A stretch of DNA of 51,608 nt. Source: Bacteroidia bacterium. Its GTDB lineage: Bacteria > Bacteroidota > Bacteroidia > Flavobacteriales_D > Crocinitomicaceae. Positions 9,302-41,512 of this stretch are shown piece after piece. The translations under genes were made by a program, and so were the position numbers. Location of the stretch: the NCBI GenBank assembly GCA_030427935.1, contig JAUICI010000010.1:1-51608 (forward strand). The letters are read 5' to 3'. The stretch's first letter is position 1. Each line of letters begins with the position of its first letter. Under the pieces are notes generated by a model. That model ran no database searches. It saw only the letters and a list, made by a program, of their open reading frames with translations, and was not told the origin of the DNA.

Positions 9302-9920
9302 ATTTCCCTAAAGCAGCGGGTCTGTAGAGTAGCCAACCCGTTAGACTATAACGACTTTTAATTGCCTTTTTAACCGCATGAGGCACCCCAGCAGACTGAA
9401 AAAGGACACATCTTTTCTTATGTGGTTCAACCAAAACAGTTGATTCATCTTCCAAAAAAACCTCCAATTCCCCTCCATCTCCTTTTTGCCATCCTTCATT
9501 CAGATAGATAACCATGGAAATCATGCGGTTATCCCGATTGGAAAACTGGTCCAAATGTTTGTCGTAATGTCCGCCTGGAGGATAATGAGCTAAATGGAAT
9601 TCATAACCAGAAAGAGATAGAAAACAATTTCGATTCAATACATCAATTGTTTCATTTACCAAATCCCACCAATCTTGAAGCGCTAAATCTCTTTTTGAAT
9701 CGAGCCAGTAAGTCTGATCACCTCGAATATTTTGTTTGATTATATTTTGATCTAAAGCTCCAATTCCAGCTTGTTCAAAATCATCAATTTTATTTAAAAA
9801 GAATTGCCTTATGTTCTGATAGAGATCATCAGTTAGAAAATCATCGATTACAACGAATCGCTTGTCGGACAGCTCATCAATCCAGTTGAGCCAGTTCCTG
9901 TCGGAATGAAATGTATTCAA
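9294..9920 (-). CDS. 2OG-Fe(II) oxygenase (prolyl 4-hydroxylase-like)
   Basis: HxD...H iron-binding pattern (HYDKHLD ... ISMVIYLNEGWQKGDGGELEVF ... PHAV). Confidence 0.7.
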   Translation of the reverse strand: MNTFHSDRNWLNWIDELSDKRFVVIDDFLTDDLYQNIRQFFLNKIDDFEQAGIGALDQNIIKQNIRGDQTYWLDSKRDLALQDWWDLVNETIDVLNRNCFLSLSGYEFHLAHYPPGGHYDKHLDQFSNRDNRMISMVIYLNEGWQKGDGGELEVFLEDESTVLVEPHKKRCVLFQSAGVPHAVKKAIKSRYSLTGWLLYRPAALGKFI

Positions 9921-15010: not shown

Positions 15011-15205
15011 TCTTACTGTATTCAGTTTATTTACTCCAAGCTCACGTTTACTGAACACATACGCTAAAACTATTACATTGAGTTATAGACGAAATGTTTC
15101 AATCATTTCTCTAATTCTTCTCTCAAGAAAGCTTTGATTCCTTAAACCAAAAAGGGATGAATCACTTCACCCCTACTTAGTACTTTTCACTTAGAACTTA
15201 GAACT

Positions 15206-28374: not shown

Positions 28375-28950
28375 ATGTTTATTGAGCAAATGCCTTACGA
28401 TTCAAGAAAACACGGATGGATAGAAGTCATCTGTGGATCCATGTTTTCAGGAAAAACTGAAGAACTCATTCGAAGGTTAAAACGAATTCAATTTACGGAA
28501 CAAAGCATTGAGGTATACAAACCAAAAGTGGATGACCGCTATCACAAAACCAAGGTTGTCTCACACGATGAAACCGATTTCGAAGCGATAACGGTAAACA
28601 ATGCCGCTGAAATCAAGGATCATTTCAAAAGGTCTGACGTCGTAGCCATTGATGAAGCTCAGTTTTTTGATGATGGTTTATTTGAAGTTTGTAATTGGTT
28701 GGCCTCTCAAAAAGTTCGGGTAATCATTGCGGGATTGGACATGGATTATTCTGGTCAGCCTTTTGGTCCCATGCCTAGTTTGATGGCCACGGCAGAATAT
28801 GTGACGAAAGTTCATGCCATCTGTGTTAAATGCGGAAGCCTTGCGAATTTTTCATACAGGATCACGAATAATAAAGATGTGGTGGATGTTGGCGAAAAAG
28901 ATAAGTATATTCCCCTCTGTAGATCTTGTTTCAATAAAATTGAACATTGA
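28375..28950 (+). CDS. tdk: Thymidine kinase
   Basis: P-loop GSMFSGKT, VIAIDEAQFF, and C-terminal zinc ribbon CxxC...CRSC. Confidence 0.9.
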   Translation: MFIEQMPYDSRKHGWIEVICGSMFSGKTEELIRRLKRIQFTEQSIEVYKPKVDDRYHKTKVVSHDETDFEAITVNNAAEIKDHFKRSDVVAIDEAQFFDDGLFEVCNWLASQKVRVIIAGLDMDYSGQPFGPMPSLMATAEYVTKVHAICVKCGSLANFSYRITNNKDVVDVGEKDKYIPLCRSCFNKIEH

Positions 28951-31289
28951 ATTTAGACTTATCCATACAGGAAATTCTTGATGTTTGCGAGGGTAAACTC
29001 CTTTCTGGAAACCCAAACAATGAAATTAATAGAGTCGATATTGACTCAAGAGATGTTTATCTACCAGAGCAAACTTTGTTCATTCCATTGAAGGGGAATA
29101 AAACCGACGGACATGCCTTTATTCCTGAACTTTACAGTCAAGGTTGTCGTTCTTTTTTAACTGAAAAAACTATTGATTTACCTTCCGATGCCAATCTCAT
29201 TTTAGTTGAAAACAGTTTGGAGTCGCTTCAGCAATTGGCTGCTCATCATCGAGATAAATTCGATATTCCGGTGATTGGAATTACTGGAAGTAACGGAAAA
29301 ACCATTGTAAAAGAGTGGATTTATGAACTGTTAAAAGAGGAGTATTCCATTGTTCGCAGTCCGAAAAGTTATAATTCTAAAATCGGCGTAGCTCTATCGG
29401 TACTTCAAATTCGTTCGATCCATAATTTAGCCATTTTTGAAGCTGGAATTAGCGCTCATGGTGAAATGAATGCTTTGGAGAAAATGATTCAACCTACGGT
29501 GGGAGTTTTTACGGGAATTGGCTCTGCACATCATGCTGGCTTTGAATCTGAAGACCACAAATTGATAGAAAAATTCAAATTGTTTCAGAACTGTTCGAAA
29601 GTCATTTGCAATGAACAATTTCTTTCACATACAGAAGCTGAAGTCCTTTCTTGGAAAGATTCCGATCTTGAAATTCGTGGGCAACAATCCTTTGTTTCTC
29701 TGGATGATAAGGATTTAGTAATTGATTTTACCACGCAGTTTCCAACTAATTTGATGAACGCCCTTGTTTGCGCGAGTTTGTTCTCAGATCATTTTGAGAA
29801 TCATATTTCTGATTTATCCAGTCTTTCTCTGAGACTAGAAACAGAAAAGGGAAACAATGGAAATATCATCATCAATGATTCCTATAATTTTGATCTGGAT
29901 TCTTTAAAAATTGCCCTGAACTATCAATACCAGCAGTATCCATCTGGACATAAAGTCTTAATTGCCTCCAAGCCAACATATGATATCGAGTCCACGTTCC
30001 ATAAGATCATAGACAATTACGGTCTGAATAAAATTATTCTAATTGGCGATGGAAATAGTACAAATGAGATTCAATATTTTACCTCAAAAGAGGCTTTAAT
30101 TCAATCTGGAGAGTTAGATCAGTTTTCAGATTCCGTTATTCTCATCAAGGGCTATCGAAATGATCATTTGGAAGAATTGGTTTTGCATTTAGAGGAGATT
30201 ACGCACAAAACCTGGTTGGAGATCGATCTTCCAGCCATTCGAAATAATATTCAAGTCTTTAGAAATAAATTGGATCCCAATTGCATGCTTTTGGCCATGG
30301 TGAAAGCTTCTGCTTATGGCGGAGGCTTAGATCGTATCGCGCATGTATTGGAACAAGAAAAAATTAATTATTTGGGTGTAGCTTATACAGAAGAGGGAGT
30401 TAAGCTTCGCGCAGCGGGAATTTCTAGCCCCATCATGGTCATGAACTCTGAAAAACAGGGCTTTTCCAAAATGGTAGAAAATCAGATCGAGCCCTCCATT
30501 TACAATTTGAATTTACTCGAAGATTTTATTCGATTTCTCATCAAAAAAGGCATTAAAAATTACCCCATTCACCTGAAAATTGAAACGGGTATGAATCGAC
30601 TTGGATTTCGATCTTCGGAGCTAAAATTGCTTCTAGATAAAATTGCGAGTCAGCCCGAAGTACGTGTTAAATCGGTCTTTTCGCATTTATCTTCCTCGGA
30701 TGATCCTAGCGAACTTAATTGGAGTGAGCAACAAGAAGACCGTTTTGATCAAGCCTGTGAAGAAATCCGGAAGGGCTTGGGTTATGATTTCATTCGACAC
30801 CTCTACAATACCAACGCCATATTACATTTTCAAAATCATAAATACGAAATGGCTCGGATGGGAATTGGTCTTTACGGCATCAGCGAACCTCAAGTTCAAA
30901 GCTTGGAAGCGGTGCTGAAACTCAAGACTAAAATCTCCCAAGTCAGAAAAATACAAGCGGGAGAATCGGTGGGCTATTCAAGAACTTTTAAAGCCAAAAA
31001 AGAAATGCGGATTGGAGTTCTAGCCATAGGTTATGCCGACGGACTTCTAAGAAGTTATTCTTCCCAGGGGCAAGTCTATGTGGACGGTAAATTGGTTCCC
31101 ATAGTTGGGAATGTTTGTATGGACATGACCATGATTGATTTATCCGACACCAATGCCGCGGAAGGCGATGACGTTGAAATCTTTGGAGACCATATCTCTG
31201 TTACTGAATTAGCAGATAAAACAGGAACGATTCCTTACGAGATTTTTACTCGAATTTCAGATCGAGTGAAGCGGGTTTATTTGGATTAA
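28947..31289 (+). CDS. murF: Bifunctional MurF (UDP-MurNAc-tripeptide--D-Ala-D-Ala ligase) / alanine racemase fusion
   Basis: N-terminal Mur ligase (GITGSNGKT) and C-terminal alanine racemase (AMVKASAYGGG PLP-Lys region ... GNVCMDM). Confidence 0.85.
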   Translation: MNLDLSIQEILDVCEGKLLSGNPNNEINRVDIDSRDVYLPEQTLFIPLKGNKTDGHAFIPELYSQGCRSFLTEKTIDLPSDANLILVENSLESLQQLAAHHRDKFDIPVIGITGSNGKTIVKEWIYELLKEEYSIVRSPKSYNSKIGVALSVLQIRSIHNLAIFEAGISAHGEMNALEKMIQPTVGVFTGIGSAHHAGFESEDHKLIEKFKLFQNCSKVICNEQFLSHTEAEVLSWKDSDLEIRGQQSFVSLDDKDLVIDFTTQFPTNLMNALVCASLFSDHFENHISDLSSLSLRLETEKGNNGNIIINDSYNFDLDSLKIALNYQYQQYPSGHKVLIASKPTYDIESTFHKIIDNYGLNKIILIGDGNSTNEIQYFTSKEALIQSGELDQFSDSVILIKGYRNDHLEELVLHLEEITHKTWLEIDLPAIRNNIQVFRNKLDPNCMLLAMVKASAYGGGLDRIAHVLEQEKINYLGVAYTEEGVKLRAAGISSPIMVMNSEKQGFSKMVENQIEPSIYNLNLLEDFIRFLIKKGIKNYPIHLKIETGMNRLGFRSSELKLLLDKIASQPEVRVKSVFSHLSSSDDPSELNWSEQQEDRFDQACEEIRKGLGYDFIRHLYNTNAILHFQNHKYEMARMGIGLYGISEPQVQSLEAVLKLKTKISQVRKIQAGESVGYSRTFKAKKEMRIGVLAIGYADGLLRSYSSQGQVYVDGKLVPIVGNVCMDMTMIDLSDTNAAEGDDVEIFGDHISVTELADKTGTIPYEIFTRISDRVKRVYLD

Positions 31290-31399
31290 AACCTACAAAG
31301 ATCCACCTCAAGAACGCAATCTTTTTGCGCAATCAACTTTATTTGAAAATTTGAGAAAATAAAGCAACTATTCCTTGTAAGTTTCGTTTTCCCAATGCA

Positions 31400-31654: not shown

Positions 31655-31860
31655 GCTTGCTCGCTTAGAAAAGGCATTCACACGGGAGGGTGAAATAGTG
31701 TGGTCGACTTAGTCGATTTTCAGGGACCGAAATTCATTTATTGGAAATGCAAGCAGATAGGTGACTGCACCGCTCTTGAAAAGCGACGATCTTAACAGAC
31801 TTGGGGGTTCGAACTTAGCGTAGCGATCTCATGAGACGCTAGTCGAGTACTCCCCCCGTT
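31655..31860. other. GC-rich structured non-coding patch immediately 3' of the WYL-PhyH gene (minus strand); candidate 3' element or small RNA
   Basis: GGGGG...CCCCCC enclosing near-perfect palindrome TAGCG-A-TCTCATGAGA-CGCTA and palindromic GTTCGAAC. Shares motifs with patch 14750-15010. Confidence 0.25.
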
Positions 31861-31864
31861 TCCG

Positions 31865-33601
31865 CTAAATCAATTCAGGTAATTTCTCTGCCTCTGCCCA
31901 TTTGAGTTCTTTGGGCAGTTTGGCTGAGGAAAACTCGAGATGAATGACTCTTCTCTTTTTGGGTTTTTTACTTTTAGCTGAAGCATGCAGAATAAGCGGC
32001 TTCATCAAATGGATACCCCCTGTTTCAACTTCACATAAAACTGGAATACTATTTTCTGCAATCATCATGATCTCTTCCGAAGACAATTGCTTCTTATGTG
32101 AACCCGGAATGACCTTCAAAGCCCCATTTTCTTCGTGAGCTGGATCTAAGTGAATCCGAATAGAAAATGTCTGCTGATTGATCTCTTCTGGTGGTCGAAC
32201 ACTGATAATTCCATCCTTGTTTGTCCAACCAGAATACCCCTCCACCTTCACTTTTTTCTTCACATTAATAGGGACGTCTTGATGCATGGTGACATACCAA
32301 TTGTCTTCATCTGTTTTATTGAAATAAATGGCTTTGACCAGTTTGACTTTGGGGTCAATTTTAGTAATGATCTCAAGTAAATTTTTATTGAAAATGAATT
32401 TCTTCAAATCTGGTATTTCTTTGAGAATGGCCCGAATCGCGTAAGGCTTTTTGAGCTGTTTTTCTTTAAAATAATTATTCAGCAAGGGGGCCATTTTATT
32501 GATTTCGCGATTTGTATAGACGTTATTCATCAAAGCAAAACCACGATGTTCGAGTTGCTTGGAACTCTTTTCAATATTTTTAGTCGAAAGTACCGTTCGA
32601 TAATTATCCTGTGCCCATTGAAGTCTTTGTTCAATGTTTCTTTTCAATTTTTCAGGCTGGATGACACGCATCACTTCACCATAACTTAAAATCTCTTTTT
32701 CCAATTCAAAATTATGTTGAACATCCAGAGAGATTGTAACTCCATAATAATCCTTATCAATCACTTTCTGACTCGAATGCAAAGGTTTCGTGATCACATA
32801 GGGTGCATGTTTATGGGTAATGAACAGTTTGACTTTCTCTGTTGGCATTGTCGGCGATACGGATACTCCAATGGCATTTTGAAAATAGGTTTGTGGGTCA
32901 AAATCTAAATTATGGACAAACTTCGCCTCAGATTTTTCAAGGCTAATGATTCGGTCTAGAGCCAAATTCATCAGTTGGGCATCCTTTTTCTTTTTCCCAA
33001 TTACAAACCATCTATTTCTGAATTCTTTCAGTAAATAAGGATGAAAATCAAAACTATTGGCTTGCCTTGCTTTAAAGGATTGATAGGTAATCAAAATCGG
33101 ACGATAATTAATAATTGCTTGATACAATTCATCCAAGAAATCCAATCCTTTCAAGTTTTCATTCTTTTCAAAATCAATCACAGGCATTTGATCCGTTTGC
33201 TGACTATGCACATGATCCTCCAATTTTTGAACCATGGAGTCCAATTCCCTGAAATGAGAAAATCCTTTAAACTGTTTTAAGAACTCCACTGCTTCCGTAA
33301 GTTTACTCAAATCCTGATCTGAAATCGGAATATTGGTAATAGAATAATCCGGATCTTCATATGTATAAAAACGCTTATCGACTACAATGATGGGTGCATT
33401 ATAACCCAATTTATCCGATCTCATGATTTGAATATCCCCTTGAACTGTTCTTCGACTTACCCCTTTATCAATTCCTTCATATTCATATAAGGCATCTGAA
33501 CACGCATCAATCAAATCTTCCAAAGTCCATTTACGAAAGCGGTTCTGTAGACATTTATCAATGGTTTTATATCGGATTAAAGCATTCTTATTAACGGCCA
33601 T
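31865..33601 (-). CDS. Fusion protein: N-terminal HTH + WYL-domain regulator, C-terminal PhyH-like 2OG-Fe(II) dioxygenase
   Basis: N-terminus MAVNKNALIRYKTIDKCLQNRFRKWTLEDLIDACSDAL... and NRWFVIGKKKKDAQLMNLALDRIISLE (WYL-type motif) match the abundant Bacteroidota WYL-regulator family. C-terminal approx 250 aa has dioxygenase motifs MHQDVP (HxD), IHLDPAHEENGALKVIPGSHK, IHLMKPLILHAS. Start trimmed to the internal Met at 33601. Confidence 0.7.
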   Translation of the reverse strand: MAVNKNALIRYKTIDKCLQNRFRKWTLEDLIDACSDALYEYEGIDKGVSRRTVQGDIQIMRSDKLGYNAPIIVVDKRFYTYEDPDYSITNIPISDQDLSKLTEAVEFLKQFKGFSHFRELDSMVQKLEDHVHSQQTDQMPVIDFEKNENLKGLDFLDELYQAIINYRPILITYQSFKARQANSFDFHPYLLKEFRNRWFVIGKKKKDAQLMNLALDRIISLEKSEAKFVHNLDFDPQTYFQNAIGVSVSPTMPTEKVKLFITHKHAPYVITKPLHSSQKVIDKDYYGVTISLDVQHNFELEKEILSYGEVMRVIQPEKLKRNIEQRLQWAQDNYRTVLSTKNIEKSSKQLEHRGFALMNNVYTNREINKMAPLLNNYFKEKQLKKPYAIRAILKEIPDLKKFIFNKNLLEIITKIDPKVKLVKAIYFNKTDEDNWYVTMHQDVPINVKKKVKVEGYSGWTNKDGIISVRPPEEINQQTFSIRIHLDPAHEENGALKVIPGSHKKQLSSEEIMMIAENSIPVLCEVETGGIHLMKPLILHASAKSKKPKKRRVIHLEFSSAKLPKELKWAEAEKLPELI

Positions 33602-33638
33602 TTCAAAAAATTTTAAATAAAAATACAAGAAATATTTC

Positions 33639-33662
33639 ACTACGCAAATAGGCTGCGCACAA
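33639..33662. promoter_or_regulatory. Dyad motif ACTACGCAAATAGGCTGCGCACAA (CGCA-N7-TGCG family), about 40 nt upstream of the WYL-PhyH gene and 125 nt upstream of tRNA-Tyr
   Basis: One of three near-identical 24-nt motifs (others at 38933 and 40228). Confidence 0.35.
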
Positions 33663-33786
33663 TCTAAATTACTTTGCTTCATCGTTCATTGATAAACAGA
33701 ATGAGAAACAGAAAGAGAATGAGCATTATTAATTAACAATCAACACAAATCTCTCATTCTTCGCTCTGTTTCTCATTCTGACAACA

Positions 33787-33870
33787 GGGGGTGCGCCAAC
33801 GTTGGAGAGTTGGGCTGGACTGTAAATCCAGTGGCTTAAGCCTGAATAGGTTCGATTCCTATCACCCCCA
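33787..33870 (+). tRNA. tRNA-Tyr (anticodon GTA), class II
   Basis: Manual fold: acceptor GGGGGTG/CACCCCC, anticodon stem CTGGA/TCCAG with loop CTGTAAA, variable hairpin GGCTTAAGCC, T-arm ATAGGTTCGATTCCTAT. Confidence 0.7.
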
Positions 33871-33935
33871 CGGAGGCAGAGTGAGTGCGGAGTGTGAGAA
33901 TGAGGGTATCTCATTCCGGTTCTCATTCTGACAAA

Positions 33936-34008
33936 GGAGAAGTAGCAAAGCTGGTCTATGCGTCCCGCTGAAAACGGGAAGATAATGGTTCGACTCCATT
34001 CTTTTCCA
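33936..34008 (+). tRNA. tRNA-Phe (anticodon GAA)
   Basis: Acceptor GGAGAAG/CTTTTCC (one G-U), anticodon stem TCCCG/CGGGA with loop CTGAAAA, T-arm AATGGTTCGACTCCATT. Confidence 0.65.
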
Positions 34009-34023
34009 CAGGTAGATTTTTAG

Positions 34024-34112
34024 AGAAGAGTAAGTCCATAATTGGTATTGGCGCACCCTGCTAAGGTGTTCATCACTTTGGTGGTGTGAGGGTTCGAATC
34101 CCTCCTCTTCTG
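34024..34112 (+). tRNA. tRNA-Ser (anticodon GCT), class II
   Basis: Acceptor AGAAGAG/CTCTTCT, anticodon loop CTGCTAA, long variable arm CATCAC/GTGGTG, T-arm GAGGGTTCGAATCCCTC, discriminator G. D-arm irregular. Confidence 0.6.
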
Positions 34113-34127
34113 CTCAAAAATTTAGAT

Positions 34128-34200
34128 GCAATTGTAGCTTAACGGGTTGAGCACCGGTCTTTTAAATCGGGGGTAGTAGGTTCGAGCCCTACCAGTTGCA
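34128..34200 (+). tRNA. tRNA-Lys (anticodon TTT)
   Basis: Acceptor GCAATTG/CAGTTGC, D-arm GCTTAACGGGTTGAGC, anticodon stem CCGGT/ATCGG with loop CTTTTAA, T-arm GTAGGTTCGAGCCCTAC. Confidence 0.7.
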
Positions 34201-34387
34201 CAGTAGTAGAGCGAGAATACAGAACGAGAATGAGAATCTTCATTCTACTTCTGCTCCTCATTCTGCAAAAGATCTTCATCCGAAAAGTCGGAGAAGCGCG
34301 GAAAGAAGCCAAATTCTGAAGACCTGATCTGTGTGTTGAAGCACAGAGGTATTCGCTTGGTAAAGTTGAATATGCCGATTCATTATT

Positions 34388-34553
34388 TAGCTGTCTTTCT
34401 CTTGACGGTATAGGTCAGAGGTTCGAATCCTCTCATAGCTAGGACTATGTAGCTCAGTTGGGTAGAGCAATATCACAATCGCGCGGGTTCGAATCCCGCC
34501 ACGCTTAAGGTGCGTGTAGCTCAGTTGGTCAGAGCACTAGACTGTAAATCTAG
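34388..34553 (+). pseudogene. Three consecutive degenerate tRNA-like fragments, none with a complete cloverleaf
   Basis: 34388-34441: acceptor, T-arm (AGAGGTTCGAATCCTCT) and CATAGCT but no anticodon arm. 34442-34507: D-arm TAGCTCAGTTGGGTAGAGCA joined directly to T-arm GCGGGTTCGAATCCCGC. 34509-34553: acceptor, canonical D-arm and anticodon arm CTAGA-CTGTAAA-TCTAG (GTA, Tyr-like) with no T-arm. The 3' strand of each unit is complementary to the 5' start of the next (CATAG/CTATG, CACGC/GCGTG). Confidence 0.4.
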
Positions 34554-34842
34554 TATCGTTAAGAAGTTGATCTCTTCAGAAAAGGATCACCAATAAATCA
34601 AGTAGCGCAGGTCTGTTGCGTAGTTTCTTCGGAAACCATGAAACAGCTTTTAGCCTGCCCTGAGTCAGAACAAGATTTGAAAACAAGTTTTGTTTCGAAA
34701 GCCAAACTCTGAAGGGGGGAAATTTTTCAGATAAGGTTGGGAAAACAAAACTCCTTTGATAGTCGCCTTCTGTCTCCGCCGATTAGGAGCGACTTGGTTG
34801 CTTGATTTGTTTTTGAATTAGTAATTATTAAACCTGTCAAAT

Positions 34843-35946
34843 ATGACTTATGTTAGAATCAACAAAGGAAACATCGGGTTGGTTTTCCGATATGGAGACC
34901 TTGTCGATGTGGTGAAGCCAGGACTTCACTGGATTGGATGGAACGACCGAGTAACATCCTACAATGTATATCAACCATTTACTTCGCCTTACAAGGATGA
35001 AGTTTTGCTTGAACACCCTAAATTCAAAGCAATGGTGGATATTGTAGAAGTACGAGACAATGAAATCGCCCTTCGATTTGAGAACGGCTATTTTAAGGGT
35101 GTTTTGAAAACAGGAAAGTACATTTTCTGGAAGGGATTTGTGGACTATGAATTCAAAATCTTGGATACTTCAAGTACGAAAGTCATCCAGAATGAATACA
35201 TCAATAAAATCCAGGATACCGTGATTACAAGTCTCGTTAAAATGTTTCATTTGGAAGAGTATGAAAAAGGATTGCTCTTTGTTGACGGGCATTTCATGCG
35301 AACATTGCCATCTGGACGCTACAGATTCTGGAAAAACAAAACGCCAATTGAATTGGTCAAAGTGGATACAAGAAAACAGCAAATGGAGGTTTCTGGTCAA
35401 GAAATTTTAACGAAAGACAAGGCTTCCATTCGAGTAAGTTTCTTCATCCATTTCCAAGTCAAAGACGTGAAGAAAGCGATCTTGGAAAACAAAAGTTATG
35501 CAGATCAACTCTATATGTTGATGCAATTTGCCTTGAGAGAGTTCATTGGAACATTGACTTTGGACGAATTGCTTGAAAAGAAAAATGAGATCGGAAAATA
35601 CGTGATGAGCAAATCCGAGAAAAAGGCTGAAGAGCTTGGGGTGGAATTGCAAAATGCCGGAATCCGTGATATTATTCTTCCAGGTGATGTGAAAGAGATC
35701 ATGAATCAAGTTCTTGTTGCTCAGAAAAGAGCTCAAGCAAATATCATCACAAGAAGAGAGGAGACTGCGTCTACCAGAAGTTTGCTTAATACAGCAAAAC
35801 TGATGGAAGATAATGCCATGCTTTTCAAGTTGAAAGAAATGGAATACATGGAAAAAATTGCCGAAAAGATTGGAGAAGTTACCGTAAAAGGAGATGGATC
35901 CACTTTGGAACAATTGACCGATATTTTCATTTCGAAAAAGAAATAA
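34843..35946 (+). CDS. SPFH/Band-7 (stomatin/flotillin-like) domain protein
   Basis: SPFH-like core in the C-terminal half (EILTKDKASIRVSFFIHFQVKDV...), N-terminal beta-rich extension. Confidence 0.75.
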   Translation: MTYVRINKGNIGLVFRYGDLVDVVKPGLHWIGWNDRVTSYNVYQPFTSPYKDEVLLEHPKFKAMVDIVEVRDNEIALRFENGYFKGVLKTGKYIFWKGFVDYEFKILDTSSTKVIQNEYINKIQDTVITSLVKMFHLEEYEKGLLFVDGHFMRTLPSGRYRFWKNKTPIELVKVDTRKQQMEVSGQEILTKDKASIRVSFFIHFQVKDVKKAILENKSYADQLYMLMQFALREFIGTLTLDELLEKKNEIGKYVMSKSEKKAEELGVELQNAGIRDIILPGDVKEIMNQVLVAQKRAQANIITRREETASTRSLLNTAKLMEDNAMLFKLKEMEYMEKIAEKIGEVTVKGDGSTLEQLTDIFISKKK

Positions 35947-35989
35947 AGTTCTACCTGAGGTGATGACCTTGGGTGGAATTTTAAATTTT

Positions 35990-36008
35990 CCCTATACGAA
36001 GTATAGGG
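35990..36008. terminator. Hairpin after the SPFH gene
   Basis: CCCTATAC-gaa-GTATAGGG. No clean U-tract. Confidence 0.4.
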
Positions 36009-36374
36009 GCAAAAAAGTCGAAAATTTTTCTTGCGATTGTAAAATTTTACTGCTTATCTTTGTCCTCGATAACGCTCTTCAAAAAGTATTCACTTTTTAA
36101 AACTGAGCAATTATGATGTTATTTAGTCTACATATCAAAAAAGCGATCGGGAAAAGCTAGACGGCTAGTCTGGACTTCAAAATATTCATCCTGATCCATG
36201 TGATTGGGATTTTTTTTGTCCTAAGATTTCGACCCGTTCGAAACATCACATCATGCTGGAGCCTCTTGAAGGGCCCCCAGCGAGTTTATCATTTTTTTAT
36301 TGAGACTGAATTTTGAAAGTATTCAATCTTCAGTCAGGCATTCTTAGCACTAAGTATGCTCAAATTTTTATGCT

Positions 36375-37778
36375 ATGGGCAAACAGAAATTAAAAGGAAA
36401 AGACCTAAAAAAAATTGGGTTTCGTTCCGATAAAGCAAAGAGTCTAGCCATCAATATCATGGCGACTCATTTTAAACATTTACATAGAGTTAAAAAGCTC
36501 GAATTATTAGAAAAATTAATTGAAAATCCGGAAGACTACGCAGAGGATAAGTACTTAAAACCTCTGGCGGAAGAGTTCATGGAAAAAGTGGTTAAGGAAA
36601 CATTCACAAGTTATAAACTTAGGTATGATTCCAAGCCTTATAAGGTTTACGGGAAACAATTCATCTGCCGAAACACGATCAACCAAATGGATCAGGCCAT
36701 GCGACTCCCGGTTGCTGAAAAAGGCGCCCTAATGCCAGACGCTCATGTTGGATACGGGCTTCCCATCGGGGGAGTTTTGGCGACAAAAAATGAAGTAATT
36801 CCTTATGCGGTTGGACTCGATATTGGTTGCAGAATGTCAGTTACCTTATTTGATGTGGAATCCGATAGAATTGATCGAGATCGTTACCAGCTAAAAATGG
36901 CTTTGCAAGAAGAAACGCAGTTTGGAATCAGCAAAGTAGTAGCCGGTAATGCCGAACATTCCGTATTGGATCGGCCAGAATTCCATGCAACTGAAGTTCT
37001 AAGAAAACTTCATGGAAAAGCAGCCATGCAGTTAGGTTCCTCAGGAGCAGGAAACCACTTCGTTGAATTTGGCGAAATGGAGATTTTAGAAGAAAACAGT
37101 CTGAATATTCCTGCTGGAAAATACATGGCCTTGGTTTCGCATTCGGGAAGTCGAGGGCTCGGAGCAGCGGTTGCGCAGTATTATACAAGAATTGCACAAG
37201 AAGTCTGTAAACTTCCAAAAGGTAGCCAGCATTTGGCTTGGTTGGATCTCGACTCGGAAGCTGGAATGGAGTATTGGCTTGCCATGAATTTGGCAGGTGA
37301 TTATGCAAAAGCTTGTCACGATGTCATTCATTCAAAAATTGCGAAAAGGTTGAATCTAAAAAAGCTGATTACGGTTGAAAACCACCACAATTTCGCCTGG
37401 AAAGAAAAACAGGAAAATGGTGAAACACTAATCGTTCATAGAAAAGGTTCGACACCAGCGAAGGAGGGAGAATTGGGATTTATTCCTGGCTCGATGTCGC
37501 ATTCAGGCTATTTAGTTTCCGGAAAAGGAAAACAAGACGCACTCTGTTCTGCCAGTCATGGTGCCGGCAGAAAATTATCGCGATCCAAGGCTAAATCTAG
37601 CTTAACTGGATCGGACATGAAAAAAGAATTGAAACAAAAACGGGTCACCCTAATCGGTGGCGCAGTGGATGAATCGCCTTTTGCTTATAAAAATATAGAA
37701 GAGGTTATCGGGGCTCAAAAGGAGCTCATCAAAGTTGAAGGCCAATTCAATCCACGAATAGTACGAATGGCAAAATAG
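36375..37778 (+). CDS. rtcB: RtcB-family RNA ligase (PrfH-associated paralog, N-terminal about 70 aa extension)
   Basis: RtcB motifs DAHVGYGLPIGG, SSGAGNHFVEFG, SASHGAGRK. Confidence 0.85.
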   Translation: MGKQKLKGKDLKKIGFRSDKAKSLAINIMATHFKHLHRVKKLELLEKLIENPEDYAEDKYLKPLAEEFMEKVVKETFTSYKLRYDSKPYKVYGKQFICRNTINQMDQAMRLPVAEKGALMPDAHVGYGLPIGGVLATKNEVIPYAVGLDIGCRMSVTLFDVESDRIDRDRYQLKMALQEETQFGISKVVAGNAEHSVLDRPEFHATEVLRKLHGKAAMQLGSSGAGNHFVEFGEMEILEENSLNIPAGKYMALVSHSGSRGLGAAVAQYYTRIAQEVCKLPKGSQHLAWLDLDSEAGMEYWLAMNLAGDYAKACHDVIHSKIAKRLNLKKLITVENHHNFAWKEKQENGETLIVHRKGSTPAKEGELGFIPGSMSHSGYLVSGKGKQDALCSASHGAGRKLSRSKAKSSLTGSDMKKELKQKRVTLIGGAVDESPFAYKNIEEVIGAQKELIKVEGQFNPRIVRMAK

Positions 37779-37784
37779 AATAAA

Positions 37785-38417
37785 ATGAAAGAATTTATAG
37801 TACAGATCAGTGCAGGAACAGGCCCGGCCGAATGTTGTTGGGTCGTTTCCAAAACACTAAAGGAATTTATGAAAGAAGCACGTGATCAAAGTATTGAAAT
37901 TGACGAAATAGGGAGATTAAAAGGTGATCAGAATGGTACATTAAAGTCCGTTTCACTATTTATAAAGGGAATGCGAGTTGACCAGTTTCTAGAAGAGTGG
38001 ACAGGTTCGATTCAATGGATAGGCAAAAGTCCTTTTCGAAAATTCCACAAAAGGAAAAACTGGTTTATTGGAATTCAAACTTTTGATTCCAAATCTGAAC
38101 CCAATTTCGATTCCAAAACGATCAAGTTTGAAACCTTTAGATCATCTGGACCCGGAGGTCAGTTCGTGAACAAAGTTGAAACCGCTGTAAGAGCGATTCA
38201 CATTCCAACTAAACTTTCGGTCACAGCTAGCGAAACAGCCTCGCAATCGATGAATAAAAAGATTGCCATAGGAAAATTGAAAACAAAATTAGATGAATAC
38301 AAAATGCAGAATTTGGTTCTTTTAAACTCGAACAAATGGATTGCCAACAAACAAGTGAAAAGAGGAAATCCAACTCGAGTTTATGAAGGAGACAAATTCA
38401 GACTAAAACAAAAATAA
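37785..38417 (+). CDS. prfH: Peptide chain release factor H-like protein (class I RF catalytic domain only)
   Basis: 210 aa with GGQ motif (SSGPGGQFVNKVETAVRAIHIPT) and no codon-recognition domain. Immediately downstream of rtcB, as in the known rtcB-prfH pair. Confidence 0.75.
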   Translation: MKEFIVQISAGTGPAECCWVVSKTLKEFMKEARDQSIEIDEIGRLKGDQNGTLKSVSLFIKGMRVDQFLEEWTGSIQWIGKSPFRKFHKRKNWFIGIQTFDSKSEPNFDSKTIKFETFRSSGPGGQFVNKVETAVRAIHIPTKLSVTASETASQSMNKKIAIGKLKTKLDEYKMQNLVLLNSNKWIANKQVKRGNPTRVYEGDKFRLKQK

Positions 38418-38418
38418 A

Positions 38419-38925
38419 ATGGACACTGCATTGGCAAACAACTATTACTTAAAGGCTTTGGATAATTATCCTTACGACCTAACTGAGTTTTTGGAGGCCA
38501 TAAACTATGCCCTTGCTTACGATGAAGATCACGCAGATGCTCATTGTTTGATGGGATTATTTTATATGGATCAACTTCAAAAATTCGATGATGCCAAATA
38601 TCATTTCAATAAAGCTTTGGCTTCGGATCTTGATAATCTGAAGGCTTATTATTCTTTGATTAGATGTTTAATTGCAACTGAAGAATACGCACAAGCTTTT
38701 AAAGTGATTGAGCATGCGCAAAAGGTCAAAGGCATTTCTTCAGAGGCCTTGGATCATAGAATTGCTATCATCATGGAAAGAAAACTTCAGTTTAGATCCG
38801 CCAAGAAATTTTTAAAGAGAGCGATCGAAAAGTCTTATTTCACAAGTGATAGAGAGTTTTATGAATCCGAATTATCAAGAGTAAAAGACAAAATTTCGAA
38901 AAGAAAATCGAAAAAAAATAAATAA
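38419..38925 (+). CDS. Small TPR-like helical-repeat protein, hypothetical
   Basis: 168 aa. Start is 1 nt after the prfH stop, likely same operon. Confidence 0.4.
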   Translation: MDTALANNYYLKALDNYPYDLTEFLEAINYALAYDEDHADAHCLMGLFYMDQLQKFDDAKYHFNKALASDLDNLKAYYSLIRCLIATEEYAQAFKVIEHAQKVKGISSEALDHRIAIIMERKLQFRSAKKFLKRAIEKSYFTSDREFYESELSRVKDKISKRKSKKNK

Positions 38926-38932
38926 TTTTTTT

Positions 38933-38956
38933 ACAACGCAAAAAGACTGCGCACTA
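38933..38956. promoter_or_regulatory. Dyad motif ACAACGCAAAAAGACTGCGCACTA (CGCA-N7-TGCG family)
   Basis: Second copy of the 24-nt motif, preceded by a T-run, directly after the TPR gene and upstream of the second tRNA array. Confidence 0.35.
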
Positions 38957-38995
38957 GCTCTTTTACTTTGAATCATCATTAAGAACAAAAGACAT

Positions 38996-39027
38996 CCCCC
39001 TCTGTCAAAAATAGATTAGGCAGAGGG
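38996..39027 (+). terminator. Hairpin CCCCTCTG-(16 nt)-CAGAGGGG
   Basis: 8-bp GC-rich stem followed by TTTAAAAAAA. Confidence 0.4.
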
Positions 39028-39162
39028 GTTTAAAAAAACAAAAAATGAACAGATTGAATTTACATATCACATTACCAAATCGACTGGATCTCCAGCCGAA
39101 TCATGATGAATTCTATTCAATCGGGAAGCCATATTTTTAGATGCGAGTAAGCGTTACGACTA

Positions 39163-39199
39163 AAAAGCCTTCTTGATGAATTTCAAGAAGGCTTTTTTA
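39163..39199. terminator. Bidirectional rho-independent terminator
   Basis: A5-GCCTTCTTGA-(6 nt)-TCAAGAAGGC-T6, perfect 10-bp stem. Confidence 0.6.
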
Positions 39200-39202
39200 T
39201 TT

Positions 39203-39274
39203 CTAGGGGGATAACGATGGCTGTTTGCCTACCTTGGACGTAGGAGGTTGTAGGTTCGAATCCTACCCCTTAGA
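39203..39274 (+). tRNA. tRNA-Pro (anticodon TGG), atypical D-arm
   Basis: Acceptor CTAGGGG/CCCTTAG, anticodon stem CCTAC/GTAGG with loop CTTGGAC, T-arm GTAGGTTCGAATCCTAC. D-stem only about 3 bp. Confidence 0.55.
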
Positions 39275-39353
39275 CAGTATTGAGCAAGAGTGAAGAGCAA
39301 GGGTTTTGAGGGATTTATTCCTGTTGCTCTTGCACTCAACTCAACACTCAATC

Positions 39354-39424
39354 GGTTCTGTAGTTTAATGGTAAAATGCCTGACTGTCTATCAGGTGTCG
39401 AGGGTTCGATTCCCTTCAGAACCG
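39354..39424 (+). tRNA. tRNA-Asp (anticodon GTC)
   Basis: Acceptor GGTTCTG/CAGAACC, D-arm GTTTAATGGTAAAAT, anticodon stem CCTGA/TCAGG with loop CTGTCTA, T-arm GAGGGTTCGATTCCCTT. Confidence 0.7.
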
Positions 39425-39446
39425 CAAAACACAAGAGTGAATGTGA

Positions 39447-39471
39447 AGTCCCGATAGCTATCGGGAGAGAG
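39447..39471. repeat. Palindromic spacer element AGTCCCGATAGCTATCGGGAGAGAG (copy 1)
   Basis: Perfect 18-nt palindrome TCCCGATAGCTATCGGGA. About 60 nt of flank is also shared with copy 2. Confidence 0.6.
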
Positions 39472-39514
39472 CGATGCAATTTCCTAACTCTCCACACTCG
39501 CACTCACTCTGATA

Positions 39515-39587
39515 ATGGGGTATAGTTCAATGGAACAGAACAGCTGAATACGAATCAGCAGATGTGGGTTCGACTCCTGCTACCCCA
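39515..39587 (+). tRNA. tRNA-Arg (anticodon ACG)
   Basis: Acceptor TGGGGTA/TACCCCA, D-arm GTTC-AATGGAACA-GAAC, anticodon stem GCTGA/TCAGC with loop ATACGAA, T-arm GTGGGTTCGACTCCTGC. Confidence 0.65.
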
Positions 39588-39662
39588 ACTAAATAAAGTG
39601 AGTTTGGAGAGCGAGAGTGATGATGTGTCCGCATTCTTCACTCTCACACTCGCTCTATAACC

Positions 39663-39736
39663 GCGGGGATGGCGGAATTGGTATACGCGCCTGACTTAGA
39701 ATCAGGATTTTGAGAGTTCGAGTCTCTCTCCCCGTA
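39663..39736 (+). tRNA. tRNA-like with Leu anticodon TAG but only a 5-nt variable loop (class-I shape)
   Basis: Acceptor GCGGGGA/TCCCCGT, Leu-type D-arm GCG-GAATTGGTATA-CGC, anticodon stem CCTGA/TCAGG with loop CTTAGAA, variable ATTTT, T-arm GAGAGTTCGAGTCTCTC, discriminator A. Confidence 0.5.
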
Positions 39737-39815
39737 CTATTTGAGTAGAGAACAAGAGTAAAGAGTTCCGAGGGCGGACTTCCTCATGCTCGAAACCCTC
39801 TACTCTTGAACCCAT

Positions 39816-39889
39816 GCCCCACTAGTCCAATTGGCAGAGACAAAGGACTTAAACTCCTTCCAGTCCAGGTTCGAGTCCTGGGTGGGGTA
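39816..39889 (+). tRNA. tRNA-like with Leu anticodon TAA but only a 5-nt variable loop (class-I shape)
   Basis: Acceptor GCCCCAC/GTGGGGT, D-arm GTC-CAATTGGCAGA-GAC, anticodon stem AAGGA/TCCTT with loop CTTAAAC, variable CCAGT, T-arm CCAGGTTCGAGTCCTGG, discriminator A. Confidence 0.5.
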
Positions 39890-39909
39890 CTTGTTTAGAG
39901 TGCGTGTGG

Positions 39910-39934
39910 AGTCCCGATAGCTATCGGGAGAGAG
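39910..39934. repeat. Palindromic spacer element AGTCCCGATAGCTATCGGGAGAGAG (copy 2)
   Basis: Identical 25-nt core to 39447-39471. Confidence 0.6.
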
Positions 39935-39971
39935 TGAGGTGATTTCCTCGCTCTTCACTTTCGGTCCCACT

Positions 39972-40044
39972 CTAGATTTATGGTGTTTCTAGTTTAACAG
40001 GTAAAATACCTCACTGTGAATGAGGAGAAAAGGGTTCGAGTCCC
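39972..40044 (+). tRNA. tRNA-His (anticodon GTG)
   Basis: Extra 5' G (G-1) opposite C73, D-arm GTTT-AACAGGTA-AAAT, anticodon stem CCTCA/TGAGG with loop CTGTGAA. T-stem only about 3-4 bp (AAGGG / CCCGG). Exact ends uncertain by 1 nt. Confidence 0.5.
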
Positions 40045-40125
40045 GGAAACACCCAAAGAAGTGCAAAGTTTGAGTGATCAATATAGAGGTTCTTCAATTT
40101 GTTCACTCAAACGACACAATGAAAA

Positions 40126-40196
40126 TGCTTTGTCGTCTAGTGGCAGGACACTTCACTTTGACTGAAGAGACGGTGGTTCGAATCCATCCAAAGCAA
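40126..40196 (+). tRNA. tRNA-Gln (anticodon TTG)
   Basis: Acceptor TGCTTTG/CAAAGCA (U1:A72 as in Gln tRNAs), D-arm GTCT-AGTGGCA-GGAC, anticodon stem CTTCA/TGAAG with loop CTTTGAC, T-arm GGTGGTTCGAATCCATC. Confidence 0.65.
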
Positions 40197-40227
40197 CAGA
40201 TAAGTTGAATTTTTAAATTTTTATTTT

Positions 40228-40251
40228 ACTACGCAAATACTTTGCGTATAA
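40228..40251. promoter_or_regulatory. Dyad motif ACTACGCAAATACTTTGCGTATAA (CGCA-N7-TGCG family), about 100 nt upstream of the second rtcB
   Basis: Third copy of the 24-nt motif. Perfect 8-bp inverted repeat TACGCAAA/TTTGCGTA. Confidence 0.35.
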
Positions 40252-40285
40252 GAGGTTTTACTTTGAAATATAAATGAAATAAACG

Positions 40286-40351: not shown

Positions 40352-41512
40352 ATGAAAAATGTTGTTAGCACAGAGAGAATTCCAATCAAATTGTGGTTGG
40401 AAGATTTAGAGGCTGAAGCTTTATCTCAAGCTAAGAATTTGGCGAATTTACCATTTGCCTATAAGCATATTCCAATCATGCCAGATTCGCACACCGGATA
40501 TGGGATGCCAATTGGTTCAATTTTGGCGACGAAAGGAGCTGTGATCCCAAATGCCGTAGGTGTAGATATTGGTTGTGGTATGTGCGCACAAAAGACGAGT
40601 TTAACTGAGATCTCAACCGATGAGATCAAGAAAGTTTTGGGAATCGCCAGAAACTTAATTCCTCTTGGATTTAATTCTCATGACGAAAAACAAGACGAAA
40701 AGTACATGCCACAAGGATGGGAAGACCTTGAAATTGTCTCGAGAGGGTATTTGAAAGCGAGAAAGCAGGTGGGAACACTTGGTGGAGGAAACCATTTTAT
40801 TGAACTACAAAAAGGTGATGACGGATTTATCTGGGTCATGATTCATTCAGGTTCAAGAAACTTGGGTCATACCGTTGCCAGCCATTACAACCGAGTGGCA
40901 AAGAAAATGAATGAGAAATTTCATTCTGTAGTGACTCCAAAAATGGATTTGGCCTTCTTCCCAATTGAAATGAGAGAGGCCAAAGATTATATGAATGAAA
41001 TGAAATACTGTGTGGAATTTGCTTTGGCGAATAGAAAGTTAATGATGTTGAGAATGATGGAAGCTTTGACCGAAGTAAAAGGTTCATTTGAAACGGATGA
41101 GATCATCAATGAATCGCACAACTTCGCGGCATGGGAGAACCATTTTGGTGCCAATGTATTGGTTCACAGAAAAGGTGCAACCAGAGCTTATGAAGGAGAA
41201 CTTGGAATGATTCCAGGGTCTCAAGGAACCAAATCCTATATTGTAAAAGGACTTGGAAACCCAGAAAGTTTCATGTCTTGTTCGCATGGTGCAGGTAGAA
41301 AAATGGGTAGAAAACAAGCCCAAAGATCGCTTGACTTAGAACATGAAAGAAAGTTTTTGGACGACCAAAACATCGTTCATGCAATCAGACATACAAAAGA
41401 TTTGGATGAAGCCTCATCAGCTTATAAAGACATTCATGAGGTGATGGGAAATCAAACAGATCTTGCGGAGATTGTGGTTGAATTACAACCATTAGGAGTA
41501 TTGAAAGGGTAG
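40352..41512 (+). CDS. rtcB: RtcB-family RNA ligase (second copy, compact 386 aa form)
   Basis: DSHTGYGMPIGS, LGGGNHFIELQ, SCSHGAGRKMGR. Confidence 0.85.
   Translation: MKNVVSTERIPIKLWLEDLEAEALSQAKNLANLPFAYKHIPIMPDSHTGYGMPIGSILATKGAVIPNAVGVDIGCGMCAQKTSLTEISTDEIKKVLGIARNLIPLGFNSHDEKQDEKYMPQGWEDLEIVSRGYLKARKQVGTLGGGNHFIELQKGDDGFIWVMIHSGSRNLGHTVASHYNRVAKKMNEKFHSVVTPKMDLAFFPIEMREAKDYMNEMKYCVEFALANRKLMMLRMMEALTEVKGSFETDEIINESHNFAAWENHFGANVLVHRKGATRAYEGELGMIPGSQGTKSYIVKGLGNPESFMSCSHGAGRKMGRKQAQRSLDLEHERKFLDDQNIVHAIRHTKDLDEASSAYKDIHEVMGNQTDLAEIVVELQPLGVLKG

Follow-up and report, generated by a model that had tools for sequence, protein, structure and literature searches.

What does a transcription factor control when it is permanently joined to an oxygenase, and what does the enzyme contribute? 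This question is raised by a minus-strand gene at positions 31865..33601 of a 51,608-nucleotide stretch of DNA (GenBank assembly GCA_030427935.1, contig JAUICI010000010.1; hereafter the window) from a Bacteroidia bacterium of the Crocinitomicaceae. A preliminary description, made from the sequence alone, had read the product as a helix-turn-helix (HTH) WYL regulator fused to a PhyH-type 2-oxoglutarate (2OG)/Fe(II) dioxygenase, and this domain call was borne out by Pfam and Foldseek. Comparative sequence analysis, from which all functional statements made here are drawn, suggests that the gene probably encodes a dedicated transcription factor of a Bacteroidota RNA-repair regulon, DriD-like in its DNA-binding half and carrying the PhyH oxygenase as a second input or activity.

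The palindromic box and the regulator beside it

A 23-bp palindrome, ACTRCGCA-N7-TGCGYAGT, with GTCTTTT as its typical spacer, was obtained by k-mer enrichment of upstream regions and by inspection. When 81 loci carrying the gene (1.27 Mb) were searched with up to two mismatches allowed, 111 such boxes were detected, compared with 0-2 in shuffled sequence. All 111 were located on the upstream, RNA-repair side of the regulator gene (573 kb) and none on the downstream side (557 kb). At 54 of the 81 loci a box lay within 200 bp of the regulator ATG, most often at 35-37 bp; at 63 it lay within 700 bp, and 72 loci contained a box somewhere. Among the 56 boxes that did not adjoin the regulator, 25 were positioned upstream of an RtcB start, mostly by 25-52 bp (RtcB-type consensus ACTACGCAAAAAGACTGCGCAGT), others preceded the genes for Ro60/Rsr (TROVE plus vWA_Ro60) or RlaP, and the rest preceded non-coding stretches. 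Five boxes occur in the window, where 0.1 would be expected by chance; they all fall between 31.3 and 40.3 kb and are the only matches to the core RCGCA-N7-TGCGY in its 51.6 kb.

Gene content on this side was counted at the 68 loci that extend at least 5 kb upstream of the regulator. A divergent Band-7 and/or RtcB gene was present at 57 of them (Band-7 at 36, RtcB at 53), and some loci without RtcB or Band-7 carried Hen1, RlaP or Tpt1/KptA. The link to tRNA and RNA-repair genes drawn in the preliminary description is thus upheld by a conserved divergent neighbourhood and a shared operator. The predicted regulon would comprise rtcB, rsr (Ro60), rlaP, the Band-7/tRNA-like RNA unit, the PrfH module and possibly the tRNA arrays. 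RtcB, Band-7 and a tRNA-like RNA together have been predicted to form a repair system, a proposal attributed to Burroughs & Aravind 2016 (cited in bioRxiv 10.1101/312249), and RtcB2-PrfH repairs and rescues damaged ribosomes (PMC9304027). In L087, a locus encoding a 71%-identical relative with the same gene order and tRNA arrays of 7 and 10 genes, a box without any mismatch was also seen at 15068-15090, 3.3 kb downstream of the regulator; the 746-aa gene that begins about 530 bp beyond it has no Pfam match and may be a further member of the regulon.

Pfam matches, all above the gathering cut-offs, define a WYL domain (PF13280; residues 155-222, 32936..33139, minus strand; E 6.3e-12, 45.8 bits against a cut-off of 21.8) and a WCX domain (PF25583; residues 254-328, 32618..32842, minus strand; E 4.5e-8, 33.8 bits against 23.9) in addition to the PhyH domain treated below. 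The winged helix-turn-helix (wHTH) region at 33326..33601 (minus strand) was matched weakly by HTH_11 (E 0.07) and was delimited by AlphaFold2 secondary structure, Foldseek matches to DriD and PafBC, and conservation; with a mean column identity of 0.85 among 80 full-length orthologues, the HTH is the best conserved part of the protein. C-terminal to it lies a helical linker (about residues 95-136, 33194..33319, minus strand), located by AlphaFold2 and Foldseek, which is the positional equivalent of the three-helix bundle of DriD and was modelled with a low predicted local distance difference test score (pLDDT) of 52-67. The AlphaFold2 model as a whole, built from a 57-sequence alignment, reached a mean pLDDT of 83.9 and a predicted template modelling score (pTM) of 0.63. 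Foldseek searches of the PDB with residues 1-330 returned DriD (8tp8, 9pfq) as best match at E 1.8e-14 and also PafBC; the matches to 8tp8, 9pfq, 9fnd and 6sj9 had E values of 1e-11 to 1e-14 over some 340 columns. The WCX assignment is accompanied by a profile match to the DriD chains 7u02/8tp8 across residues 214-330 in a PDB sequence search, which is in agreement with the two-part division of the model seen in Foldseek. As modelled, the N-terminal wHTH and helical linker are DriD/PafBC-like in fold. Within the WYL domain, Y173, S175, K192, N196, R197, W198, F199, D216 and R217 are invariant in the orthologue alignment, and conservation was seen at the candidate WYL positions Y173, S175, R179, R195, R197, W198 and R217. 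Compared with PDB sequences, the WYL segment aligned weakly to PafBC at E 0.32, which is insufficient for mapping ligand-contact residues.

DriD of Caulobacter crescentus, the best structural match for residues 1-330, is a homodimeric activator with the domain series wHTH, three-helix bundle, WYL and WCX. Its operator, CGxC-N7-GxCG with an A/T-rich gap, is located in DriD's own promoter (PMC10853764). The box described here likewise has G/C-rich arms around a 7-bp A/T-rich gap and lies in the regulator's own promoter, whereas its arms read CGCA/TGCG and those of DriD CGAC/GTCG. The two proteins share 14-17% identity, and DriD has no oxygenase domain. In addition, DriD senses single-stranded DNA (ssDNA) and controls DNA-damage genes, whereas the regulon here is one of RNA repair. 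Because the box is DriD-like in geometry and adjoins the gene, and the loci have no other recurrent regulator gene, a dimer of the protein very likely binds the 23-bp box, and it would contact the site via the wHTH, as DriD does on its operator.

Promoter architecture and the direction of control

Boxes were oriented by the A-rich strand of the spacer. Of 115 oriented boxes, 104 are followed by a TTTG that begins exactly 11-12 nt downstream, compared with six in the opposite direction, and an A/T tract is located just upstream of the oriented boxes. We take the downstream TTTG to be the Bacteroidota -7 promoter element, which reportedly reads TAnnTTTG (Bayley et al. 2000) and is normally accompanied by a TTTG at -33. 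The box spans about -44 to -22 of this core promoter and covers the -33 position, where a TTTG is absent. The regulator gene is always found on the reverse side of its adjacent box, which overlaps the regulator's own promoter. From this side preference we conclude that the box would primarily drive the divergent repair transcript.

The exact spacing to TTTG, the fixed polarity with its asymmetric spacer, the missing -33 element and the upstream A/T tract favour activation. The protein would thus act mainly as an activator, which we consider moderately likely, and a role as repressor appears somewhat less than likely. In such a mechanism, the box would replace the -33 element and the protein bound to it would activate in a DriD/PafBC-like manner; autorepression at the regulator's own promoter is possible. 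DriD activates by asymmetric binding and by contacts of its helical bundle with the C-terminal domain of the alpha subunit and with the beta subunit of RNA polymerase (PMC13004042), and the asymmetric box promoter is compatible with this mode of activation.

Given the same regulon and operator, the protein could instead be a CapW/BrxR-like repressor that occupies the -33 region and is released by a WYL and/or PhyH signal, a reading that we regard as possible though unlikely. It would be consistent with the overlap between the box and the core promoter from about -44 to -22. Only 33-41 bp separate the box from the ATG at the regulator's own gene, and here the T-rich spacer and the right arm form a TTTG, a possible -33 element of this promoter, which suggests autorepression. 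WYL repressors that sense ssDNA exist (PMC11662680), and repression is also the mode of action of TrcR, the regulator of the analogous cyanobacterial regulon. However, the regulated promoters are without a -33 TTTG of their own, and 90% of the boxes, across genes and families, keep the exact spacing to the -7 element. Furthermore, the asymmetric spacer has a fixed polarity, and a conserved A/T tract is located just upstream. All of these features would be expected of an activator that contacts RNA polymerase, as DriD does, and none is required of a repressor.

Regarding the signal that may switch the putative activator, the WYL domain might, by analogy with its relatives, sense a nucleic-acid-derived sign of RNA damage, e.g., RNA fragments or their ends. 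WYL regulators in repair systems have been proposed to sense RNA ends (cited in PMC9503650).

Four of the five boxes of the window (at 33639, 38933, 40228 and 31311) have the downstream TTTG, and the one at 34602 is without it. Box 1, ACTACGCAAATAGGCTGCGCACA (33639..33661, plus strand), lies 37 bp upstream of the regulator ATG with its TTTG at 33673-33676, and its plus-strand promoter faces the tRNA-Tyr gene, a non-coding RNA region, and the Band-7 and RtcB genes. The box ACTACGCAAATACTTTGCGTATA (40228..40250, plus strand; TTTG at 40262-40265) is located about 100 nt upstream of a second RtcB gene. The box-like palindrome GTAGCGCAGGTCTGTTGCGTAGT (34602..34624, plus strand) lies inside the non-coding RNA region, has no TTTG at +11, and its conservation extends to L087. 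It was flagged as a hairpin too and may serve as an auxiliary operator or form a hairpin in the RNA.

The box ACAACGCAAAAAGACTGCGCACT (38933..38955, plus strand) has its TTTG at 38967-38970. Downstream of it, a hairpin (about 38996-39028), a 31-codon open reading frame (ORF; 39046-39141) and a strong terminator-like hairpin (39163-39200) are followed by a tRNA-Pro gene, and the segment 38956-39200 looks like a small box-controlled transcript.

The remaining box, AGAACGCAATCTTTTTGCGCAAT on the plus strand (31311..31333), is oriented towards the minus strand, with its TTTG appearing as plus-strand CAAA at 31296-31299, and has a counterpart at 2505-2527 of L088, a related locus from an independent read-level assembly. 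Together with 31285-31300, it forms a minus-strand promoter that points antisense into the 3' end of murF-alr, and transcription would start at about the murF-alr stop codon; no ORF or known RNA was found at this antisense target. The murF-alr gene (28947-31289, plus strand) encodes a 780-aa fusion of a MurF-like Mur ligase with an alanine racemase, and a thymidine kinase gene is located upstream of it (28375-28950).

The oxygenase domain and the weight of the evidence

PhyH (PF05721) matched residues 353-551 (31949..32545, minus strand) with E 1.7e-12 and 48.6 bits against a cut-off of 22, covering profile positions 4-212 of 213, and conservation, Foldseek and the active-site signature agree with this assignment. 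From knowledge of the family, we take H440 (codon 32282-32284), D442 (32276-32278) and H539 (31985-31987) to be the metal ligands and R550 (31952-31954; all on the minus strand) to be the expected 2OG-binding arginine, its distance of 11 from H539 presumably being that typical of PhyH proteins. H440, D442 and R550 are each present in all 80 full-length orthologues and H539 in 78. Because this set of residues is kept, the oxygenase is very probably catalytically competent. Of the motifs singled out in the preliminary description, HQD is H440-Q441-D442, invariant in 80 of 80, and LILHAS contains the distal metal ligand H539; IHLDPAHE is only half borne out, as its first histidine, H484, is conserved (79 of 80) and the second, H489, is variable (D/T/N/S). 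Codon 439 (32285-32287), adjoining H440, encodes Met in the window protein and in its closest homologues, P0001-P0003, and Trp in 78 of the 80 orthologues.

The PhyH domain is the least conserved part of the protein (mean column identity 0.65), yet it is clearly constrained, and it was modelled with a pLDDT of mostly 88-94. The C-terminus aligned to the PhyH/2OG fold not only in Pfam but also in Foldseek, which returned double-stranded beta-helix structures with target-normalised template modelling scores of 0.60-0.72 (7dt0, 4xaa, 5epa, 4q5o, 5nch). The nearest solved folds were proline hydroxylase H11, AviO1, HygX, SnoK, EctD, GriE and FtmOx1. Regarding an AlkB-type domain, no 2OG-FeII_Oxy_2 match was obtained in Pfam at E values up to 1, and no AlkB-family chain occurred among the 50 best PDB matches. 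The protein is also not an ectoine hydroxylase, as the score for TIGR02408 in NCBIfam was far below threshold (21 bits against a cut-off of 336.5).

A search of 1.84 billion cluster representatives with residues 330-578 gave 2362 matches, mostly to stand-alone PhyH proteins of 35-45% identity. These relatives are 225-250 aa long, mostly from Bacteroidota, and bear the generic name 'phytanoyl-CoA dioxygenase family protein'. The fused domain and its stand-alone relatives have a signature in common (NWxVxWHQD, RIHLD..NGAL.VIPGSH, PLLLHAS..RRVIHLEF), and we therefore conclude that the domain was probably recruited from an ordinary Bacteroidota family of stand-alone enzymes. Characterised PhyH oxygenases (proline hydroxylase H11, AviO1/HygX/EvdO1, EctD, GriE, SnoK) and stand-alone Bacteroidota proteins of 230-250 aa have the same fold and the same HxD...H...R set. 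Those enzymes are free-standing and use small-molecule substrates, whereas the domain here is permanently fused to a transcription factor. The modified nucleobase or nucleic-acid damage that the preliminary description had offered as substrate is not supported, since the nearest folds are small-molecule oxygenases and the stand-alone relatives, in the three neighbourhoods compared, occur without RNA-related context.

Within the proposed RNA-repair regulator, the PhyH domain would add a second input (dependence on a substrate, O2, Fe(II) or 2OG) or a coupled enzymatic step. It may be an enzyme that consumes the inducer, a sensor of O2, iron, 2OG or oxidants, or an independent, travelling activity. 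Ada, PutA and BirA are precedents for proteins that are both enzyme and regulator; together with AlkB they offer a conceptual analogy without homology, the catalytic and DNA-binding domains residing in one chain and activation by Ada being coupled to repair. An enzyme-regulator coupling of the kind found in Ada, PutA and BirA is hypothetical here. As an enzyme-coupled sensor, PhyH would act on the damage signal itself, be it a metabolite, a nucleotide or an RNA that is damaged or modified, and its occupancy or turnover would switch the DNA-binding half. The strict conservation of the catalytic residues in a family diverged to 54% identity, the covalent fusion kept in all orthologues and the constraint on the domain at its mean column identity of 0.65 speak for such a sensor. 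In contrast, Pfam and Foldseek revealed no AlkB-like or nucleic-acid-binding signature, the active-site signature common to the stand-alone relatives points to an ordinary small-molecule substrate, and no conserved partner gene hints at what the substrate might be. We consider this coupling rather unlikely. Doubtful, too, is its boldest form, an 'Ada for RNA', in which the fused oxygenase would have as its substrate an RNA that carries damage or a modification, a nucleotide, or a metabolite derived from damage, and the occupancy or turnover of the enzyme would turn the WYL factor into an activator.

As a further alternative, PhyH could report physiological state (O2, Fe(II), 2-oxoglutarate or peroxide) and gate the RNA-repair response by oxidative or metabolic status, without acting on an RNA-related substrate. 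The Fe(II)/2OG site is intact, the named organisms among 80 loci belong almost all to aerobic orders (Flavobacteriales, Cytophagales, Saprospirales), and mononuclear Fe(II) sites are known as oxidant sensors, e.g., in PerR. However, this proposal is purely inferential, and the stand-alone relatives resemble normal enzymes, so that we hold it to be quite unlikely.

Several points weigh against the assignment of a DriD-like, oxygenase-carrying activator to this regulon. Nine of the 81 loci have no box at all, and RtcB or Band-7 was absent within 8 kb at 11 of the 68 loci. In the window, the gap between the Band-7 and RtcB genes (35947-36374) contains no box, leaving the RtcB gene at 36375 without one of its own, and the terminator-like hairpin that separates the 38933 promoter from the seven-tRNA array makes control of this array uncertain. 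Binding of the box by the protein is deduced from co-occurrence and the analogy to DriD, activator and repressor are not separable by sequence, and the WYL repressors CapW and BrxR likewise have operators that overlap promoters. The characterised WYL relatives bind ssDNA, not RNA. With respect to the oxygenase, the nearest folds of the modelled C-terminal domain are small-molecule oxygenases, not AlkB-type enzymes, and three neighbourhoods of stand-alone PhyH relatives had nothing in common and no RNA-related context. No downstream partner gene is conserved (138 ORFs fell into 109 clusters with clade-level synteny only), and no tie between the PhyH domain and RNA became apparent. Finally, at a pTM of 0.63 the interdomain geometry of the AlphaFold2 model is not reliable.

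The fused gene, its locus and its analogues

The loci without a box would also fit a box that is bound by another factor, or that is a special promoter element, with the WYL-PhyH gene as a mere neighbour of the RNA-repair cluster. This is very improbable, as no other regulator gene recurs at the loci, the palindrome is of the dimer type and shares its N7 geometry with the operator recognised by the nearest structural relative, and the box adjoins the WYL-PhyH gene at 63 of the 81 loci.

The integrity of the gene was assessed in the window and among its relatives. The ORF list and reading of the sequence gave a minus-strand ORF at 31865..33682 without interruption, in which the coding sequence 31865..33601 extends from an ATG at 33601 (MAVNKNALIRYK) to a stop codon at 31867-31865 and encodes 578 aa. 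The start was placed at 33601 because the orthologues begin with the same residues as the 578-aa protein (MPVNRNALIRYKTID) and because the conserved box at 33639-33661 would fall inside a longer reading; a 605-aa reading from an ATG at 33682, which would contain the operator, was ruled out, as orthologues start at the downstream ATG. The series wHTH-WYL-WCX-PhyH is that of the family: the 120 best database homologues measure 570-618 aa and align over 98-100% of the query at 59-92% identity, and all but one have precomputed matches to WYL, WCX and PhyH, the exception (P0072) having WYL and WCX at full length and 98% coverage. Relatives are encoded in 511 species genomes in a scan with one genome per species, and the best 80 of these genomes belong to Flavobacteriales, Cytophagales, Saprospiraceae and their relatives. 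Copies were intact at 80 of 82 translated loci; the other two are metagenome-assembled genomes with one in-frame stop each (L041 at codon 334, L063 at codon 377), and L035, the sister locus of L041, is intact. L088 likewise has an intact 578-aa ORF of 92% identity. Against this evidence, the gene-fusion artefact considered in the preliminary description, i.e., two adjacent genes joined via a frameshift or an assembly error, has next to no probability, the single stops in L041 and L063 being all that was found in its favour.

At 50% clustering the fused family was reduced to a handful of representatives, and the WYL-PhyH fusion therefore represents one compact orthologous group; by these comparisons, it is a common, single orthologous family within aerobic Bacteroidota. 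The preliminary remark that the architecture is not usual thus holds for characterised WYL regulators but not within aerobic Bacteroidota. PafBC, CapW, BrxR and SiwR have the same N-terminal domain series and one-component sensing of damage or stress; PafBC of Actinobacteria is a heterodimer-like tandem protein, CapW and BrxR repress phage-defence loci, and none of them carries a fused enzyme. With respect to phage defence, PADLOC returned generic WYL models only, and the neighbours of the fused gene are RtcB, Band-7, Ro60, RlaP, PrfH and tRNA genes, not defence genes.

Upstream of the regulator, on the plus strand, the window carries four tRNA genes (Tyr-GUA, Phe-GAA, Ser-GCU and Lys-UUU; 33787..34201) identified by tRNA search, where L087 has seven. 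These are followed by a non-coding region (34265..34660) with two YrlA-like permuted tRNA-like modules (34409-34473 and 34482-34535) and an anticodon-arm-like CTAGACTGTAAATCTAG. The YrlA Rfam scores of the modules (41.3 and 36.7 bits) are below the gathering score of 69, and tRNA-like matches were obtained in addition; at gathering thresholds, Rfam gave only tRNA and tRNA-like matches in eight related loci. The region is conserved in L087 (8470-9114, minus strand) and is a probable counterpart of the 'Band-7-associated tRNA-like RNA'. Next come genes for an SPFH/Band-7 protein (34843..35946; PF01145, E 9.9e-32), a 467-aa RtcB RNA ligase (36375..37778; PF01139, E 2.1e-78), orthologues of which have a box 25-52 bp upstream at other loci, a PrfH-like release-factor homologue with an RF-1 domain, with which this ligase is paired (37785..38417; PF00472, E 3.2e-21), and a small TPR protein that recurs in these clusters by tblastn (38419..38925; TPR_19). 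Seven tRNA genes (39203..40197, tRNA search; a 10-gene array in L087) lie between the two RtcB units, and the second unit encodes a 386-aa RtcB ligase (40352..41512; PF01139, E 1e-108), orthologues of which are preceded by a box in L013 and L025.

The 428-bp gap between Band-7 and RtcB contains terminator-like hairpins at 35944-35983 and 36188-36210 and a -7-like element, TTATCTTTG, at about 36054-36062. The RtcB gene at 36375 may be transcribed from a promoter of its own that does not depend on a box; alternatively, a further small RNA may be encoded in the gap. The tRNA arrays embedded in the RNA-repair cluster (4 and 7 genes in the window; 7 and 10 in L087, at 2870-4084 and 9115-9905) include a tRNA-Ile with anticodon UAU, and several tRNAs score low (42-48 bits); by analogy with the Anabaena trn operon, these may be reserve tRNAs. 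Of the nine CTCATTCT octamers in the window, eight cluster at 33697-34265 and form GAGAATGAG/CTCATTCTC hairpins that flank the tRNA-Tyr, tRNA-Phe and tRNA-Lys genes, where they may serve as signals for processing or represent a small repeat element. Other loci do not conserve them; as a candidate operator, the hairpins were rejected, being confined to the tRNA spacers of this genome and not part of the conserved motif set. At the other end of the regulator gene, a tRNA-Ser(UGA)-like gene (31743-31865, plus strand) abuts the stop codon. Its T-loop contains a 37-nt hairpin insertion (31813-31849) that the intact tRNA-Ser in the corresponding position of L088 (2009-2094) does not have; ARAGORN did not call this gene in the window, and its acceptor, D and anticodon arms still fold.

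Two regulators of comparable gene sets are known from other phyla. RtcR of Proteobacteria controls the rtc operon and senses RNA damage (PMC7790460). Like the WYL-PhyH protein, it is a divergently encoded one-component regulator of genes for RtcB, Ro60 and Y RNA. RtcR is a CARF-AAA+-HTH sigma-54 activator of rsr-yrlBA-rtcBA and not homologous to the WYL-PhyH protein, in which Pfam detected no CARF, AAA+ or sigma-54 activator domain; RtcR targets sigma-54 promoters, whereas the box promoters are of the sigma-A type with a -7 TTTG. In Anabaena, TrcR governs a regulon made up of a tRNA array, rtcB and a slipin gene; it regulates its own expression and reacts to translational stress (PMC10272220). 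Its gene set (tRNA array, rtcB, slipin/Band-7 gene) is very similar to the one described here. In contrast to the WYL-PhyH protein, TrcR is a ribbon-helix-helix repressor of unrelated fold without a sensor or enzyme domain. By this analogy, we infer that the WYL-PhyH protein is a functional counterpart of RtcR and TrcR.

That WYL factors may regulate RNA-repair pathways has already been published, an idea attributed to the authors Burroughs & Aravind (cited in PMC9503650). In the literature searched, no paper describes the WYL-PhyH fusion, its operator or its regulon, and none reports that RtcB is under the control of a WYL factor in Bacteroidota; Burroughs & Aravind 2016 may already list the architecture or mention WYL regulators near such clusters. 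What appears to be new here is the assignment of a DriD-type WYL factor with a 2OG oxygenase to an RtcB/Ro60/Band-7 regulon with a defined operator.

To our knowledge, how RNA damage is sensed and RtcB switched on outside Proteobacteria is largely unknown, RtcR (CARF) and TrcR (ribbon-helix-helix) being the only regulators studied, and permanent fusions of a transcription factor with a 2OG oxygenase are rare. The locus would represent a third, unrelated solution to the control of RtcB-type repair, for a whole phylum, and it comes in testable parts: a 23-bp operator, a composite promoter with the operator in place of the -33 element, a predicted regulon, and a sensor in which WYL is joined to a 2OG oxygenase that appears to be active. 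The WYL paradigm, at present built on the sensing of ssDNA, would be extended to RNA repair, and the substrate of the oxygenase would reveal the chemical signal that reports RNA damage or translational stress. If the doubtful 'Ada for RNA' proved true, with a regulon of RtcB ligases, Ro60, Band-7, PrfH, tRNA-like RNAs and reserve tRNA arrays, oxidative chemistry based on O2, iron and 2OG would be tied directly to the repair and replenishment of the translation machinery.

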